This document shows positions 12,989 to 38,769 of a DNA stretch of 64,000 bases, one piece after another; within the stretch, counting starts at the first letter, position 1, and every line of letters starts with the position of its first letter. The stretch comes from an uncultured Bacteroides sp. GTDB lineage: Bacteria > Bacteroidota > Bacteroidia > G022818785. A program made the translations under genes and the position numbers. The notes beneath the pieces are model-generated. The model was not told the DNA's origin and did not search any database. It was given only the letters and a program-made list of their open reading frames with translations. The stretch lies in the NCBI GenBank assembly GCA_964620755.1, contig CAZUHH010000008.1:191172-255171 (forward strand), read 5' to 3'.

Positions 12989-14497
12989 ATGGTTAAAAAG
13001 TTACAATTAGTTAAAGGTTTTTATAACAATATAATTATTAATGACTTTAATAATGAAATTATATATTTAAAATATTCTCTTAATTTTTTTATTAAATTAA
13101 GCAATAATAAAAAATTGTTAATATTATTAAATACTGATTTATCTATAAATAATATTGAATATTTTAAATATATAATTTATCCTTTAATATCTACTAAAAT
13201 TATTAATAAGATATTTATTGTAAATAATAATTTAATCAAATCTTTCATTTGTAAAGAAAATATTTTTTTTTGCAATACAGTGTCACAGGTATGTGATATG
13301 ACAAAAATTAATTACGATAACAATAATGATATTTTATTGAAAGGTAATGATAAAAATATGATTAAAACTACTAATCATTTTTTTTGTATCAATAATAGCA
13401 ATACAATACTAAATATTAATTTAAATATTATAGAAAATAATTTACAAGTTTATAGAGATATTCTTAATAAGAAAACTAAAATTATGGCTATTGTAAAAGC
13501 ATATTCTTATGGATTTGGAGATATAATAGTCAATATATTACAATATTGCAACATTGATTATATAAGTGTTGCAAATACTTATGAAGGAGTTATTTTAAGA
13601 AAAAATGGCATTATATCCCCCATAATGATTATGAATTTTGATATTAATACATTTGACAGTCTTTTATATTATAATCTAGAACCTTCTATCTATAACTTTA
13701 AAACTTTAAAATTGTTAATATCATTCTTATTAAAAAAGAATATACATGATTTTAAAATACATATTAAATTTAATACTGGTATGAATAGATTAGGATTCGA
13801 TTATAAAGATATTATATTATTAGCAAATATTTTAAATAAATATTCAAATTTAATTATTATAAAATCAATATTTTCACATTTATCATCTAGTAAAAATATA
13901 TCATTTAAAATAATTACACAAAATCAAATTAAATTATTCAGTATAATAAAAAATAAAATGAAATTATACATAAAGTATAATATTTTATTTCATATTGCAA
14001 ATACTACAGCAATTATTAATTACCCCAATGCTCAATTTGATATGGTAAGATTAGGTATAGGATTATATGGTATAGATTATACAAAAAAATTAGATAAAAT
14101 TAAATTTTCAGCTTCTTTACAAACTATTATATCTCAAATTAGATATGTAAAAAAAAATCAAACAATTGGTTATAATTGCAAAGGTACTATAAAAAGAAAT
14201 TCTAAAATAGCTATTGTAAAAATAGGCTATGCAGATGGTTTAAAAACATATTATAATAATAATATAAATTATATGATAGTTAACAATATGAAAGCACCTG
14301 TAATAGGTAATATATGTATGGATATGACTATGTTGGATGTAACAAATATTAAATGTAAAGAACATGATATAGTAACAATATTTGATAATATTGATACACT
14401 TAATTATATAGCAAATATTTTAAATATTAGTCTTTATGAAATATTTACAAATATTTCATCAAGAGTAAATAGAATATATCATTATAGTTATAAATAA
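12989..14497 (+). CDS. alr: Alanine racemase with about 135-aa uncharacterised N-terminal extension
   Basis: PLP-lysine motif IMAIVKAYSYGFG at about aa 166-178 and C-terminal GNICMDMTMLDV; ORF is 502 aa versus about 365 aa for the catalytic domain. Confidence 0.8.
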   Translation: MVKKLQLVKGFYNNIIINDFNNEIIYLKYSLNFFIKLSNNKKLLILLNTDLSINNIEYFKYIIYPLISTKIINKIFIVNNNLIKSFICKENIFFCNTVSQVCDMTKINYDNNNDILLKGNDKNMIKTTNHFFCINNSNTILNINLNIIENNLQVYRDILNKKTKIMAIVKAYSYGFGDIIVNILQYCNIDYISVANTYEGVILRKNGIISPIMIMNFDINTFDSLLYYNLEPSIYNFKTLKLLISFLLKKNIHDFKIHIKFNTGMNRLGFDYKDIILLANILNKYSNLIIIKSIFSHLSSSKNISFKIITQNQIKLFSIIKNKMKLYIKYNILFHIANTTAIINYPNAQFDMVRLGIGLYGIDYTKKLDKIKFSASLQTIISQIRYVKKNQTIGYNCKGTIKRNSKIAIVKIGYADGLKTYYNNNINYMIVNNMKAPVIGNICMDMTMLDVTNIKCKEHDIVTIFDNIDTLNYIANILNISLYEIFTNISSRVNRIYHYSYK

Positions 14498-17921: not shown

Positions 17922-19916
17922 ATGGGTAATAACAATAATCCTAAGTTAAAAATTTATAAACTATATAATAATATTCAACAGTATAGTTATAATTATTATG
18001 TTTTAGGGGAGTCAACTATTACAGATTATGAATTTGATAATATGATAAATGAATTATATGCATTAGAAACTAAATATCCTCAATATAAAATTGAAAATTC
18101 CCCAACAGATAAGATTTATAATAATGAAAAAAATATTGCGGTTAAACATATAAATCCTATGTTATCACTTTCTAATACGTATTCTGAAAAAGATTTATTA
18201 TTATTTGATCGTAGTATTAGAAAAAAAATTAGTTGGAAATATCAATATGTTTGTGAATTAAAATTAGATGGTATAGCATTATCAATTAGATATGTTAATG
18301 GTAAATTTTATCAAGCTATTACTAGAGGCAATGGATTATATGGAGAGGATATAACATATAATATTAAATATATGGCTGATATTCCTATGAAAATAGATAA
18401 TGTAAGTAATTTTGTAGAAATAAGAGGAGAAATTATTATTTTAAAGAGTGATTTTAATAAAATAAATGAGTATAGAAAAAATAAATCTTTATTACCTTTT
18501 TCTCATGGTAGAAGTTTTATAATAGGTGTAATTAAATTACAGCACTATAATCCTTTATATAAAAAAATATTAAAATACTATGCTTATGATATATATGTTG
18601 ACAATATAAAATTAAATAATCATTTTAATAATATATATATATTAAAAAGCTATAATTTAACTGTTTCAAATGATATAGAGATATGCAATAATATTAATAA
18701 AGTTATAAAATTTATTGCTAAATATAAAGATATAATTAATAAATTAAATTTTCATGTAGATGGTATAGTTATAAAAATTAATCAATATAAAATACAACAA
18801 TATCTAGGTAATACTTCTAAATATCCTAAATGGGCTATAGCATATAAATATCCTCCTAATGAAGTTGAAAGTATTGTTTTAAAGATTGTATATCAGGTTG
18901 GACGTACAGGTTTGATAACTCCAATAGCTAAAATAAAACCTATTAATATTTCAGATACTATTGTTAAAAGTATCAATTTACATAATTATTATGAAATATT
19001 AAGATTAGATATTAGAATCAATGATACTGTTTATATAAAAAAAAGCGGTGAAATAATACCTAAAATTACTGGTGTTAATTTAAATAAACGTTTATCTAAT
19101 GCTATAAAATTTATTTTTTCTATTAATTGTCCATCATGTAATAGTAAATTAATAATATCTAACAATAACAAATCACATTATTGTATTAATACAATATGTG
19201 ATAGTAAGATAATAAATAAAATTGTTCATTTTATTTCTAAAAATGCTATGAATATTGATAATCTTGGCATTAAAAATATTGAATTATTATATAAAAATAA
19301 GATAATTAACAACTATACTGATTTATATTCTTTAAAAAATAAAAAAAATTTAATAATGGCTATTAAGGGATTTAATCATACTATTATTAATAAAATATTA
19401 TACAGTATTGATAAATCTAGAAAACCTAAATTTCAAAATTTTTTGTTTGCACTTGGAATACCTTCTATAGGTATTGAAACATCTATTTTAATATCTAAAG
19501 AATTTAATAATATAAATGAATTAATAAATTATAATTTTAATAAATTACCTAAAATTATGAATATAGGACCTAAAATAGTTCATAATTTACATTTATTTTT
19601 CTCAGATAGGGAAAACAAGATATTGTTAAATAAATTATTAGTAGAAAATATAGAAATACAATATTATAAATCAATTAATAAAAGTAAAAAATTAAATAAT
19701 ATTCATTTTATTATTACTGGAACTTTTAAAAATTATAGTCGTAATGAATTAATAGATTTAATTCATATTAATGGAGGTATAATATGTAAAAATATGTCAT
19801 CTAAATTAAATTATGTTATTGCTGGTAATAATATGGGGCCATCAAAAAAATTAATGGCAGAAAAAATGAATATTAAGATAATATCTGTTAATGAACTATT
19901 AAAAATAATCAATTAA
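17922..19916 (+). CDS. ligA: NAD-dependent DNA ligase
   Basis: Adenylation lysine motif CELKLDG, zinc-finger cysteines (CPSCNSKL), 664 aa. Confidence 0.9.
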   Translation: MGNNNNPKLKIYKLYNNIQQYSYNYYVLGESTITDYEFDNMINELYALETKYPQYKIENSPTDKIYNNEKNIAVKHINPMLSLSNTYSEKDLLLFDRSIRKKISWKYQYVCELKLDGIALSIRYVNGKFYQAITRGNGLYGEDITYNIKYMADIPMKIDNVSNFVEIRGEIIILKSDFNKINEYRKNKSLLPFSHGRSFIIGVIKLQHYNPLYKKILKYYAYDIYVDNIKLNNHFNNIYILKSYNLTVSNDIEICNNINKVIKFIAKYKDIINKLNFHVDGIVIKINQYKIQQYLGNTSKYPKWAIAYKYPPNEVESIVLKIVYQVGRTGLITPIAKIKPINISDTIVKSINLHNYYEILRLDIRINDTVYIKKSGEIIPKITGVNLNKRLSNAIKFIFSINCPSCNSKLIISNNNKSHYCINTICDSKIINKIVHFISKNAMNIDNLGIKNIELLYKNKIINNYTDLYSLKNKKNLIMAIKGFNHTIINKILYSIDKSRKPKFQNFLFALGIPSIGIETSILISKEFNNINELINYNFNKLPKIMNIGPKIVHNLHLFFSDRENKILLNKLLVENIEIQYYKSINKSKKLNNIHFIITGTFKNYSRNELIDLIHINGGIICKNMSSKLNYVIAGNNMGPSKKLMAEKMNIKIISVNELLKIIN

Positions 19917-19919
19917 ATT

Positions 19920-20474
19920 ATGGGTATAATACATAATTTAAGAAATAAAATAGGATATATGCTACTAAATAGTACAATTAACAATTGTAAATATAAACAT
20001 TATTCTATTCCTTTTAAAAATGCAAACAATATAGGTGTTTTATATAATGTCAATAATAGTATTGATTTGTTAGAAATGAATTTATTAATAGAACTATTAT
20101 GTAAGTATAACAAAAACATTTATTTACTATATTATTCTAATAATAAGCAAAAATATATTAAAAATTATAATTATGAGTTTTTATATGTAAATTATTTTAA
20201 TAAAAAAAATATTAATTACATTTTTCATCCTAAATGTAATGTTGTACAATCATTTATTAAAACAGAATTTGATATATTAATTGCTATTTGTTTTTATGCT
20301 TTTTTGCCAATAGATTACATATCAGGATTATCAAAAGCTAAATTTAGAATAGGTTTATATAACAAAATTAATATTAATTATCTTGATTTAATATTTGATT
20401 TAAAAAATGATGATAATATAAATTCTTTTATAATTAATTTAAAAAGATATTTTAATTTAAAAGAAAAAATATGA
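19920..20474 (+). CDS. Hypothetical protein, 184 aa, no recognisable motif
   Basis: ATG 4 bp after ligA stop; stop overlaps dapA start (ATGA), which suggests co-transcription; composition N/I/K/Y-rich. Confidence 0.5.
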   Translation: MGIIHNLRNKIGYMLLNSTINNCKYKHYSIPFKNANNIGVLYNVNNSIDLLEMNLLIELLCKYNKNIYLLYYSNNKQKYIKNYNYEFLYVNYFNKKNINYIFHPKCNVVQSFIKTEFDILIAICFYAFLPIDYISGLSKAKFRIGLYNKININYLDLIFDLKNDDNINSFIINLKRYFNLKEKI

Positions 20475-21352
20475 ATAACTTAATAAGTGGTACTGGTATA
20501 GCAATTATTACACCATTTAAAGAAAATTATAGTATAGATTATATAAGTTTTAGAAAAATCATTGAACATATCTGTAATAGCAACGTAAATTTCATAATAG
20601 TTGCAGGTACTACAGGTGAATCATCTCTTATAAGTGATTATGAAAGATGTAAAATTTTTGATTTTATAGCAAATATTAATAACAACAGACTAAAATTAAT
20701 AGCTTGTATTGGAGGTAATAATACTAAATCAGTTATTAAAATGATTAAAAATTTCCATTTATCAAAATACTATAAAGCTATATTATCAATTAGCCCATAT
20801 TATAACAAACCATCTCAAGATGGTATAATAATACATTATAAAAAAATAGCTGAAGTTTCTAAACTTCCTATCATAATATATAATATTCCTCATAGAACAA
20901 GTATTAATATATTGGTAGAAACAATTATTAAATTATCTGAAATTCCCAATATTATTGGCATTAAGGAATCTAATAGTAATGTAATAAATACATATAATAT
21001 TATTAACAAAACTAATTCAAATTTTTTATTTTTTTCGGGCGATGAAACTTTATCATTATCTGATATGGCATTAGGAGCCAATGGAATAATATCTGTTATA
21101 GGTAATGCATATCCTAATTTAGTATCTGATATGATAAACAAGTGTTTAAAAAACAATTTTATAGATGCGAAAAAAATATATAATAAACTTATGAAGATAA
21201 CATCTTTAATATTTCAAGAAGGTAATCCCTCAGGAATAAAAGAACTAATGTATCATTTAAATTTTTGTACTAATATAGTGAGATTACCTTTAACAAAAGT
21301 CAGCTATGATTTATCAAATAAAATTAAAAAAACAATCAAAAATGATTTTTAA
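20471..21352 (+). CDS. dapA: 4-hydroxy-tetrahydrodipicolinate synthase
   Basis: GTGIAIITPF and IVAGTTGES motifs of the DapA/NAL family; 293 aa. Confidence 0.88.
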   Translation: MNNLISGTGIAIITPFKENYSIDYISFRKIIEHICNSNVNFIIVAGTTGESSLISDYERCKIFDFIANINNNRLKLIACIGGNNTKSVIKMIKNFHLSKYYKAILSISPYYNKPSQDGIIIHYKKIAEVSKLPIIIYNIPHRTSINILVETIIKLSEIPNIIGIKESNSNVINTYNIINKTNSNFLFFSGDETLSLSDMALGANGIISVIGNAYPNLVSDMINKCLKNNFIDAKKIYNKLMKITSLIFQEGNPSGIKELMYHLNFCTNIVRLPLTKVSYDLSNKIKKTIKNDF

Positions 21353-21522
21353 TTGTTTTTTATATTTTGTACTTCTAATCTTATATCTTGAGCTATATTT
21401 TTAAGCATTTGCATGCCTTTTCTTAATCTAGTTCCAGCTGCACCATTACCTTTTTGATAAAATTTTTCAGCATCTTTTTCTAATGAAGTTAATACTTCTT
21501 TAAAATATTCGAATTTTTTCAT
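21349..21522 (-). CDS. Histone H1-like (Hc1-type) nucleoid protein, 57 aa
   Basis: Manual minus-strand translation MKKFEYFKEVLTSLEKDAEKFYQKGNGAAGTRLRKGMQMLKNIAQDIRLEVQNIKNN; GNxAAGTR.RK motif of Bacteroidota histone H1-like proteins; absent from ORF track (below length cut-off). Confidence 0.7.
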   Translation of the reverse strand: MKKFEYFKEVLTSLEKDAEKFYQKGNGAAGTRLRKGMQMLKNIAQDIRLEVQNIKNN

Positions 21523-21659
21523 TTCACATTAAAATAAAATAATCAAAACCCATAGAATAATTATGGATTAATTAAAAATAGATATAAAATATATCATTTA
21601 TTTCTTATATTATAAATATTTTTTTTTGAAAAAAAAATATTTTATATAAAAATATATAC

Positions 21660-22065
21660 ATTAATTGAATTTGTCGCTTTAAAAATAATATTTTAAAGAG
21701 GAAAGTCCGGACAACATAGAGCAATTTGCTTCTTAACGAGAAGGTATTATTAATAATAACAGATAGTGTCACAGAAAATAACCGCCTTTAAAATAAGGTA
21801 AGGGTGAAAATGTAAAGGTAAGAATTTACAATATTATATAGTGATATATAATATGGATAAACCTCAAATGTTGAAAGATTAAATAGTTTCATATTCATTT
21901 TTATCATGAATACAAGTAGCTCAGCTTGTTTTATTATTCATCAAACATTGATAGATAATAAAGTGAAATAGGTGAATCGATTGATTAATTAAGTAATTAA
22001 TTAACTAGATAAATGACAAATATATTCTTTTGAATATACAGAATCCGGCTTATTATATTATATGT
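21660..22065 (+). ncRNA. rnpB: RNase P RNA (bacterial type A); ends approximate (+/- 20 nt)
   Basis: Conserved blocks in order: GGAAAGTCCGGAC (21700..), ACAGAAAATAACCGCC, AATAAGGTAAGGGTGAAAATGTAAAGGTAAGAA, AGCTCAGCTTG, ACAGAATCCGGCTTAT (22038..22053). Confidence 0.78.
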
Positions 22066-23009
22066 ATATAATTTTTATATAAATCTATAATTTTAGATGC
22101 TAAAACATTGCCTATTTTTTTATATGACTCTGCAGTTAATCCAGCAATATGAGAACTTAAAATAATTTTATCAGATTTAATTAATTGTTTATAAAAATTA
22201 CTGTTGTATAATTCTGGAAATTTTTCTATTTCTAATACATCTAAAGCTGCACCAATAATAATACCATTTTTAATAGCTTTTATTAAATCACTTGTTTTGA
22301 CAATATTGCCTCTAGAAGTATTAATAAAATAAATCTTCTTTTTAAAAGAATTAAAATAATCAATATCAATCATATGCTTTGTTTCTGTATTTAAAGGAAT
22401 ATTAATACTAACAATATCTGATTGTTCAAATAAATCTTTTTCAGTTACTAATTTAACACTTTTATATTTTGTAGAAATTTTATATTTATCATATGCAATT
22501 ATATTCATATTAAAAGATGACATTTTATTTGCTAATGAAGATCCATTATGTCCTAAACCGACAATACCTAATGTTTTATTTTCCAATTCTATAGATTGAT
22601 TACTTATTCTATCCCATATACCATTTTTAATTTCATTATTTGACTTAACAATATTCTTTGTTAAACTTAATATCATACCTATTATATGTTCTGCAACTGC
22701 ATTTTTATTTCCTTCTGGTGCATTTATAATTTTAATATTATATTTCATTGCAGTATTTATATCAATATGATCTAATCCTGATCCAGCTCTGGCAATGAAT
22801 TTTAAATTATTACTTTTGGTAATTATTTTATCATCTATTATAAATGAATTACTTCTTAATACTAGACCATCATAATTATCAATTATTTTTAGAATGTTAT
22901 TATAAGATATATTTTTTTTAATATCTGTTTTAATATTAAAATTATTAATTTTTTTTATAAAAATAGAATGTATATCATTAATAATTAATATTTTATTTAA
23001 TATTTTCAT
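22053..23009 (-). CDS. serA: D-isomer-specific 2-hydroxyacid dehydrogenase, probably D-3-phosphoglycerate dehydrogenase (short form)
   Basis: NAD-binding LGIVGLGHNGSS, catalytic-domain blocks NTSRGNIV and SSHIAGLT; start placed at ATG 23009 (track start 23024 is TTG). Confidence 0.65.
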   Translation of the reverse strand: MKILNKILIINDIHSIFIKKINNFNIKTDIKKNISYNNILKIIDNYDGLVLRSNSFIIDDKIITKSNNLKFIARAGSGLDHIDINTAMKYNIKIINAPEGNKNAVAEHIIGMILSLTKNIVKSNNEIKNGIWDRISNQSIELENKTLGIVGLGHNGSSLANKMSSFNMNIIAYDKYKISTKYKSVKLVTEKDLFEQSDIVSINIPLNTETKHMIDIDYFNSFKKKIYFINTSRGNIVKTSDLIKAIKNGIIIGAALDVLEIEKFPELYNSNFYKQLIKSDKIILSSHIAGLTAESYKKIGNVLASKIIDLYKNYIHII

Positions 23010-23039
23010 ATTATAAATATTCAATTTTTTATAAAAATA

Positions 23040-26223: not shown

Positions 26224-26475
26224 GTGAATTATATTAATGATAAAAAAACTACTTTATTTAAAGTAAAAAAAGCACTTAAAATAATAAGACCTTTTTTAAA
26301 AGAGGATGGTGGTGATGTTGCTATAAATAATTTGACTAAAGATAATGTTTTAATTGTTAAATTACTTGGTAATTGTAAATTATGTCCTATAAATAAGATT
26401 ACTTTGCAAGTGGGTATTAAGGCAATTATTAAAAGAGAGGTTCCTGAAATAATAGGTGTTCGTCTTAAAATTTAA
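26224..26475 (+). CDS. NifU-like Fe-S cluster scaffold domain protein (Nfu-type)
   Basis: EDGGDV..GNCKLCP pattern of NifU C-terminal domain; 83 aa; apparent GTG start. Confidence 0.6.
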   Translation: MNYINDKKTTLFKVKKALKIIRPFLKEDGGDVAINNLTKDNVLIVKLLGNCKLCPINKITLQVGIKAIIKREVPEIIGVRLKI

Positions 26476-27436: not shown

Positions 27437-27570
27437 TTTAAATATAATTATTAATCAAAAATTGATATTATAATGTCATTATTAAATAAATAATTATGCG
27501 ATAATATATTTTTTTTAATCTAAAAAAAATATTCTTAATTAAGAAGTTAAAAAAATATATTAAAATAATT

Positions 27571-38260: not shown

Positions 38261-38545
38261 TCATTTGTATTTTTTTAATTGCACAATAAGTGAATCTACA
38301 GCTATGTTAATACCTTCATAAAAATTTTTGCAATATTTTTTAACAAACAAAGTATTGTGAGGTATAACTGCCATTATACCAATGGTATTTCTCTTTTTTA
38401 AACACTGGTCTATTTTGAGATATATTTTACATAAAATAATATTATTATAAAAACATGATATTTTTTTAATCTTTTTTATAGCTGTATTTACAAGATTGCT
38501 ACTTTTATCAAAATTAACACATTGTATAAGAATATTCATAATCAT
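38261..38545 (-). CDS. hpf: Ribosome hibernation promoting factor / RaiA-family protein
   Basis: NIILCKIYLK and INIAVDSLIVQLKKYK align with HPF core (VYVVLKVEK ... AAIDGLIDKLARQLTKHK). Confidence 0.65.
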   Translation of the reverse strand: MIMNILIQCVNFDKSSNLVNTAIKKIKKISCFYNNIILCKIYLKIDQCLKKRNTIGIMAVIPHNTLFVKKYCKNFYEGINIAVDSLIVQLKKYK

Positions 38546-38574: not shown

Positions 38575-38769
38575 TTACATATAATCTTTATCTTTTATTT
38601 TTTGTTTATAAATAGCATTTTTTATAATGTTCCTTCTCTTTGTAGAATTTTTTTCAAATGATTGCCTATTACGTAATTCTTTTAAAATACCTATCTTATC
38701 AAATTTTCTTTTAAATTTTCTAATAGCTCTATCGAAATTATCTCCTTCTTTAATTTCAGTTATTATCAT
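38575..38769 (-). CDS. rpsU: 30S ribosomal protein S21
   Basis: 64 aa basic protein, FDRAIRKFKRK and KRRNIIKNAIYKQK typical of S21. Confidence 0.85.
   Translation of the reverse strand: MIITEIKEGDNFDRAIRKFKRKFDKIGILKELRNRQSFEKNSTKRRNIIKNAIYKQKIKDKDYM

Follow-up and report, generated by a model that had tools for sequence, protein, structure and literature searches.

A studied relative of the protein considered here is Hc1 (HctA) of Chlamydia trachomatis, an 18 kDa, histone H1-like DNA-binding protein; its expression in E. coli is toxic and leads to condensation of the nucleoid. According to PMC2848022, dimerisation of chlamydial Hc1 is mediated by the N-terminal domain, while DNA binding is assigned to the Lys-rich C-terminus (the C-terminal region is given the same role in PMC3469542). 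Nucleoid condensation and the resemblance of HctA to eukaryotic H1 are also assigned there to the Lys/Ala-rich tail (PMC2848022), and HctA is described as a developmentally regulated protein that is controlled by the sRNA IhtA (PMC3469542). Free-living Bacteroidota encode much shorter proteins that are labelled 'histone H1' in databases. A search of the literature returned no experimental study of this short Bacteroidota form, and no mention of Hc1 was found there for Sulcia, Blattabacterium, Uzinura or Walczuchella. Since the short form is devoid of the sole part of Hc1 for which the consulted sources report DNA binding, the name of this widespread family promises more than is known about it.

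The locus described here lies in a window of 64 kb (the whole stretch of DNA that was analysed), which originates from a nutrient-provisioning, highly reduced genome with a GC content of ~21%. Its features are the following:

17922..20474, plus strand: ligA and the DUF6913 gene together (LigA match, PF21857), with the same order and orientation in relatives
17922-19916, plus strand: ligA, one intact ORF of 664 aa
19920-20474, plus strand: DUF6913 gene (PF21857, E=1.8e-22)
20471..21352, plus strand: dapA, 4-hydroxy-tetrahydrodipicolinate synthase (TIGR00674, 280.6 bits against a cut-off of 206)
21349..21352, no strand: tail-to-tail overlap of hc1 and dapA, 4 nt, read from the sequence
21349..21522, minus strand: hc1 coding sequence, ATG start, TAA stop, 57 codons plus stop (ORF and Pfam PF07432 match)
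21523..21657, minus strand: divergent intergenic region between hc1 and rnpB, 135 nt, putative hc1 promoter and leader
21658..22069, plus strand: rnpB, class A RNase P RNA (RF00010, 161 bits)

An earlier note on this DNA had quoted a 57-codon minus-strand ORF and had assigned it to the histone H1-like (Hc1) proteins. The frame is present at 21349-21522 (-) and encodes the same 57 residues, MKKFEYFKEVLTSLEKDAEKFYQKGNGAAGTRLRKGMQMLKNIAQDIRLEVQNIKNN, as given in the ORF listing of the window; the computed properties of the product are a mass of 6.7 kDa, a pI of 9.75 and a net charge of ~+4.5. The family assignment is borne out by an HMM search, in which Pfam PF07432 (Hc1) aligns over its full length (protein residues 1-57 on profile positions 1-57/57) with 81.1 bits and E=5.3e-23, against a gathering cut-off of 23.5 bits. 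Its small size, below the usual 60-aa cut-off, is a plausible reason for the absence of the gene from the ORF track, and its recovery is a correct rescue of a sub-60-codon gene of the type that size-filtered ORF lists drop. Further real genes of the window have fewer than 100 codons and could be missed by such a filter, namely rpsU (S21, 64 aa; 38575-38769, -), a gene resembling ribosome-hibernation factors (PF02482, 94 aa; 38261-38545, -) and a NifU-like gene (83 aa; 26224-26475, +).

The window hc1 belongs to a catalogued family, of which it is an ordinary member, and its product is already present in public protein collections. The exact sequence (P0001) is held in an NCBI-derived collection, on a 294,096-bp contig, with PF07432 precomputed. 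A word-indexed search of 5.8 billion proteins returned 36 relatives of 57-73 aa with 61-70% identity, all of which carry PF07432, and an exhaustive HMMER search of 1.84 billion cluster representatives (50% identity clustering, E<=0.001) yielded 640 Hc1-family clusters. Two relatives, one from a Bacteroidota bacterium and one from Persicobacter psychrovividus, bear the NCBI name 'histone H1'. The relatives found in a scan of GTDB representatives belong to free-living or MAG Bacteroidota with at most 73% identity, neither the source genome of the window nor the sister genome described below being among them, and none of the ten most AT-biased family representatives comes from a named symbiont. 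In an alignment of 21 family sequences, 17 columns are invariant (K8, D17, F21, Y22, N26, A28, A29, G30, T31, R32, L33, R34, K35, Q38, K41, Q45 and R48), and every one of them is present in the window protein. The GNxAAGTRxRK core to which the earlier note had drawn attention is thereby the invariant motif of the short Bacteroidota proteins labelled 'histone H1'. With the window Hc1 as query, a PHROGs search gave no match, no match to the globular domain of the eukaryotic linker histones H1/H5 was found in sequence or fold, and no HU/IHF match was obtained in Pfam.

The window protein shares with chlamydial Hc1 the N-terminal domain with its GNxAA..R.R core, whereas HctA continues for ~70 further residues of Lys/Ala-rich tail. 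Judged by sequence, the N-terminal domain is all of chlamydial Hc1 that it matches; it stops at residue 57 (..NIKNN), 2 residues past the last conserved position. The NCBIfam HctA equivalog NF051889 reaches only 14.7 bits (E=0.035, model positions 9-52/121) against a cut-off of 100 bits, so the window protein, which also has no tail, is not an HctA orthologue. A BLASTP comparison with an approximate HctA sequence, which is indicative only, places window residues 23-50 on HctA 25-52 with 43% identity. Given that the tail to which DNA binding is reported to map is missing, the window Hc1 cannot act exactly like chlamydial Hc1/HctA. Absence of a tail is common in the family, as 91 of the 130 closest motif-bearing representatives (~70%) end no more than 10 residues after the domain, and ~6 of the 130 have tails of the AKKAAPAAAKK type. 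The tailed proteins, exemplified by P0296, P0427, P0370 and P0404, possess the same N-terminal hairpin domain and motif as the tail-less window protein and append tails of 17-36 aa to it. The Hc1 family is modular.

At its 3' end, hc1 faces dapA. The earlier claim that the two stop codons overlap proved accurate: the genes are convergent, the hc1 stop occupies 21349-21351 (-) and the dapA TAA stop 21350-21352, hence the stop codons share 2 nt (21350-21351) within the 4-nt overlap of the genes. This arrangement leaves no room for a terminator; a scan of 21200-21750 for terminator-like sites, which is uninformative in AT-rich DNA, found none. On this side the gene is flanked by dapA, the DUF6913 gene, ligA, aroQ and dnaX, while on the other side it is followed by rnpB, a serA-like dehydrogenase gene, clpP, clpX and ahpC/ahpD. 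The 135-nt region between hc1 and rnpB contains the AT-rich blocks TATTTATAATAT and TTTAATTAAT..ATAATT, which are common to the aligned sister genome described below. A scan for the sigma-70 consensus near hc1 detected 6 sites where 5.3 are expected, i.e. chance level, and a promoter role of this region is speculative. The ORFs at 21605-21772 (-) (55 aa, 80 nt from hc1) and 21788-21907 (-) inside rnpB are spurious. rnpB and the serA-like gene (22053-23024, -) share 17 nt, where the 3' end of the former meets the stop of the latter.

To place this arrangement in a wider context, hc1 regions from 80 Bacteroidota genomes were compared. In 25 of the 80 loci dapA is convergent with hc1 and lies directly downstream of it; 18 of these loci also have ligA and 7 the DUF6913 gene, with the order and orientation seen in the window. 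The dapA-convergent loci belong mostly to Sphingobacteriales and Cytophagales, including Mucilaginibacter, Pedobacter, Arcticibacter, Cyclobacteriaceae, Ohtaekwangia and others. The recurrence of the ligA-DUF6913-dapA block opposite hc1 in many Bacteroidota shows that the block is old and that hc1 was inherited vertically. In the window, the stop codon of the DUF6913 gene overlaps the start codon of dapA (ATGA). The gene occupies the place between ligA and dapA there, as it does in free-living Bacteroidota and in the sister genome (58% identity); that a 294-kb genome has kept a gene of uncharacterised function is noteworthy. In contrast, rnpB adjoins hc1 in none of 18 free-living loci and is shared in this position by the sister reduced genome only, therefore this adjacency is not ancestral.

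The short proteins of free-living Bacteroidota closely resemble the window Hc1: they are 57-60 aa long, tail-less, begin with MKKFE... and keep the invariant residues, with 61-73% identity. Examples are MBI1768187.1 (P0013, from a groundwater Bacteroidetes MAG), WP_332921584.1 (P0414, Persicobacter psychrovividus) and the Mucilaginibacter/Pedobacter loci L001-L007, and in short-form free-living loci hc1 is likewise convergent with dapA and downstream of ligA-DUF6913. The window copy differs from them in its AT bias (GC3 0.10), in having rnpB as its upstream neighbour and in the 4-nt overlap with dapA; in free-living relatives a distance of ~70-130 nt lies between the hc1 match and the point where the dapA alignment stops. 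Among the sampled loci Hc1, DapA and LigA lean slightly towards Sphingobacteriales, and ClpX homologues are ~55% identical to those of assorted Bacteroidota.

The DapA closest to that of the window (61% identity) is encoded on CP063811.1 (GCA_022818785.1, 'MAG: Bacteroides sp.', 489,825 bp, ~21% GC), of which 20 kb are collinear with window positions 10-31 kb. The two genomes form a collinear ~21%-GC pair that had no close relatives in the searches, as the identity of their ClpX and DapA to all other sequences is 45-59%. Bostrichicola was considered as the lineage and rejected, because it is reported to lack shikimate genes (PMC10284843), whereas aroQ and aroA are both present in the window. 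The sister hc1 (L081:10879-11064, -; coordinates with this prefix refer to the sister locus) encodes 61 aa and scores 79.4 bits against PF07432. Its product is 78.6% identical to the window Hc1 and has the same flanking genes on both sides, including rnpB (L081:11154-11542), but it carries four extra C-terminal residues (..HANQNK), and the gene is separated from dapA by 2 nt where the window has an overlap. The sister ligA (L081:7427-9462) appears in the ORF calls as a pair of overlapping frames (173 and 506 aa), which a frameshift, pseudogenisation or an error in the assembly could explain.

Of the 23 proteins that are collinear between the window and CP063811.1, Hc1 shows the highest conservation, its 78.6% identity standing against a median of 58.3% and being followed by IlvC (77.6%) and AhpC (74.3%). 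The nucleotide differences in hc1 amount to 9/3/20 at codon positions 1/2/3, and dN/dS is ~0.14 (Nei-Gojobori). These values indicate strong purifying selection, under which hc1 is kept in at least two reduced AT-rich genomes (294 kb and 490 kb). The earlier note had spoken of the retention of a dedicated nucleoid protein in a tiny genome; the retention holds, given the sister copy and its place at the top of the 23 proteins, whereas the words 'dedicated nucleoid protein' derive from the family name only.

Two rival explanations of the ORF can be dealt with first. In the first place, the frame could be open by chance, given the AT-rich DNA, or the conserved stretch could be non-coding, for example a 3' region of dapA. 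Mononucleotide shuffles of the 64-kb window yield ~7 ATG ORFs with a length of 57 aa or more, so that at 21% GC the length of the ORF alone proves little, and the spurious ORF at 21605-21772 (-) in rnpB also looks 'conserved' in the sister genome, which means that nucleotide conservation alone proves nothing. This explanation is nevertheless refuted by the profile match across the full model (E=5.3e-23) and the codon-level pattern, namely substitutions concentrated at third codon positions and a GC gradient typical of coding sequence (GC1/GC2/GC3 of 0.38/0.24/0.10), which together identify hc1 as a real gene; with 640 family clusters in public data besides, its probability is negligible. The other explanation, a decaying remnant that lost its tail in the course of genome erosion, might be suggested by the extreme reduction of the genome (294 kb, ~21% GC), by the collapse of intergenic space to a 4-nt overlap with dapA and by the existence of longer, tailed family members. 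However, free-living relatives share the tail-less architecture of 57-60 aa, so nothing has been truncated, and hc1 is the most conserved gene of the block between the two reduced genomes, with dN/dS of ~0.14 and all invariant residues intact. Decay is thereby effectively refuted and may be regarded as very improbable. Hence hc1 is probably a real, constrained, tail-less gene of the Hc1 family.

What the product does is less certain. No solved structure was found for the Hc1 family, but according to an AlphaFold2 monomer model built from the family alignment (mean pLDDT 96), the window Hc1 is predicted to fold as an antiparallel two-helix hairpin, which is encoded as follows:

21451..21519, minus strand: predicted helix 1, residues 2-24 (AlphaFold2 model)
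21418..21450, minus strand: turn and invariant basic motif, residues 25-35, GNGAAGTRLRK (alignment of 21 family members)
21355..21444, minus strand: predicted helix 2, residues 27-56 (AlphaFold2 model)

Helix 1 is roughly charge-balanced and contributes the hydrophobic residues F4, F7, L11, L14, F21 and Y22, with D17, F21 and Y22 among its conserved positions. In the model, the G-N pair makes the hairpin turn and AAGTRLRK opens helix 2, which carries most of the net charge of +4.5 and has a basic face composed of R32, R34, K35, K41, R48 and K55. Beyond the motif, Q38, K41, Q45 and R48 are invariant in this helix. Fold searches with the model retrieved generic helical hairpins only, therefore the structure gives no pointer to nucleic-acid binding. 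The predicted amphipathic hairpin is compatible with dimerisation.

A possible mechanism can be outlined on this basis. Two Hc1 hairpins may pair by their hydrophobic faces to form a four-helix bundle, a proposal that draws on the reported dimerisation of the N-terminal domain of chlamydial Hc1. On such a dimer, the invariant basic ridge of helix 2 (T31-R32-L33-R34-K35, K41 and R48) would be exposed twice, and this bivalent basic surface could bind the nucleic-acid backbone with little sequence specificity. In that case Hc1 would serve as a small and abundant protein of the nucleoid-associated or bridging type. Binding of the nucleic-acid backbone with low specificity, in a nucleoid-associated or bridging role, is the reading that we prefer, although we would put it at an even chance at best. 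A nucleoid role is plausible for the window Hc1; it is inferred from the family, and it is much less certain than the identity of the gene. Within the 64-kb window, no HU-like ORF was found in the intergenic gaps.

The main competitor accepts hc1 as real and constrained, but takes the stand-alone N-domain to be a dimeric protein-protein or RNA/ribosome-binding module, for instance one that regulates, or serves as an adaptor for, RNA polymerase, the ribosome or mRNA, in which case 'histone H1-like' would be a misnomer inherited from the chlamydial tail. The division of labour reported for the chlamydial protein favours this possibility, as DNA binding is placed in the C-terminal tail and dimerisation in the N-terminus, and the tail is absent from the window protein as well as from 91 of the 130 closest representatives. 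An interaction of Hc1 with RNA and repression of translation in vitro have also been reported, reportedly by Pedersen et al. 1994, going by the title of that paper. In addition, the fold is that of a generic oligomerising hairpin, and the extreme conservation of Hc1 would be no less expected of a protein with a specific macromolecular partner than of a non-specific DNA binder. On the other hand, the invariant residues are mostly basic and of a surface type (R32, R34, K35, K41 and R48), which, like the pI of 9.75, is typical of polyanion binders, and in relatives such as P0296, P0427, P0370 and others the domain is fused to Lys/Ala-rich, H1-like tails, i.e. it is found in a nucleic-acid-binding setting. 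Furthermore, the gene context suggests no candidate partner, the conserved neighbours being dapA, the DUF6913 gene and ligA. On balance, a partner-binding module of this kind appears rather unlikely, and backbone binding with low specificity remains our preferred reading.

Whichever macromolecule the protein contacts, a 294-kb genome keeps very few genes outside metabolism and translation, yet hc1 survives in it, and its retention together with its rank as the most conserved of the 23 proteins argues for a core cellular role. A bolder and somewhat doubtful proposal is that the tail-less hairpin is no histone-like compactor but a near-essential factor of Bacteroidota, either the main chromosome-bridging protein, working in a new dimeric basic-hairpin mode, or a partner of RNA, the ribosome or RNA polymerase. 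If this were true, its importance would have been exposed by its place among the most constrained genes that are kept in genomes of <0.5 Mb.

A few further observations concern the family and the two genomes. Two family members, P0298 and P0358, have apparent signal-peptide or lipoprotein-like N-termini, and P0298 contains two tandem Hc1 domains; unless they are artefacts of gene calling, such N-termini sit oddly with a purely nucleoid role. In the sister genome, dciA (L081:16879-17160; a 93-aa DciA, PF05258, of the replicative-helicase operator family) lies between ruvX and ndk, while the corresponding gap in the window (27437-27570) measures 134 bp, and dciA appears to have been lost from the smaller genome. 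Finally, ~140 residues precede the Pfam racemase domains (from residue 143 onwards) in the alanine racemase ORF of the window (12989-14497, +), and the same arrangement is found in the sister genome, the protein of which is 47% identical.
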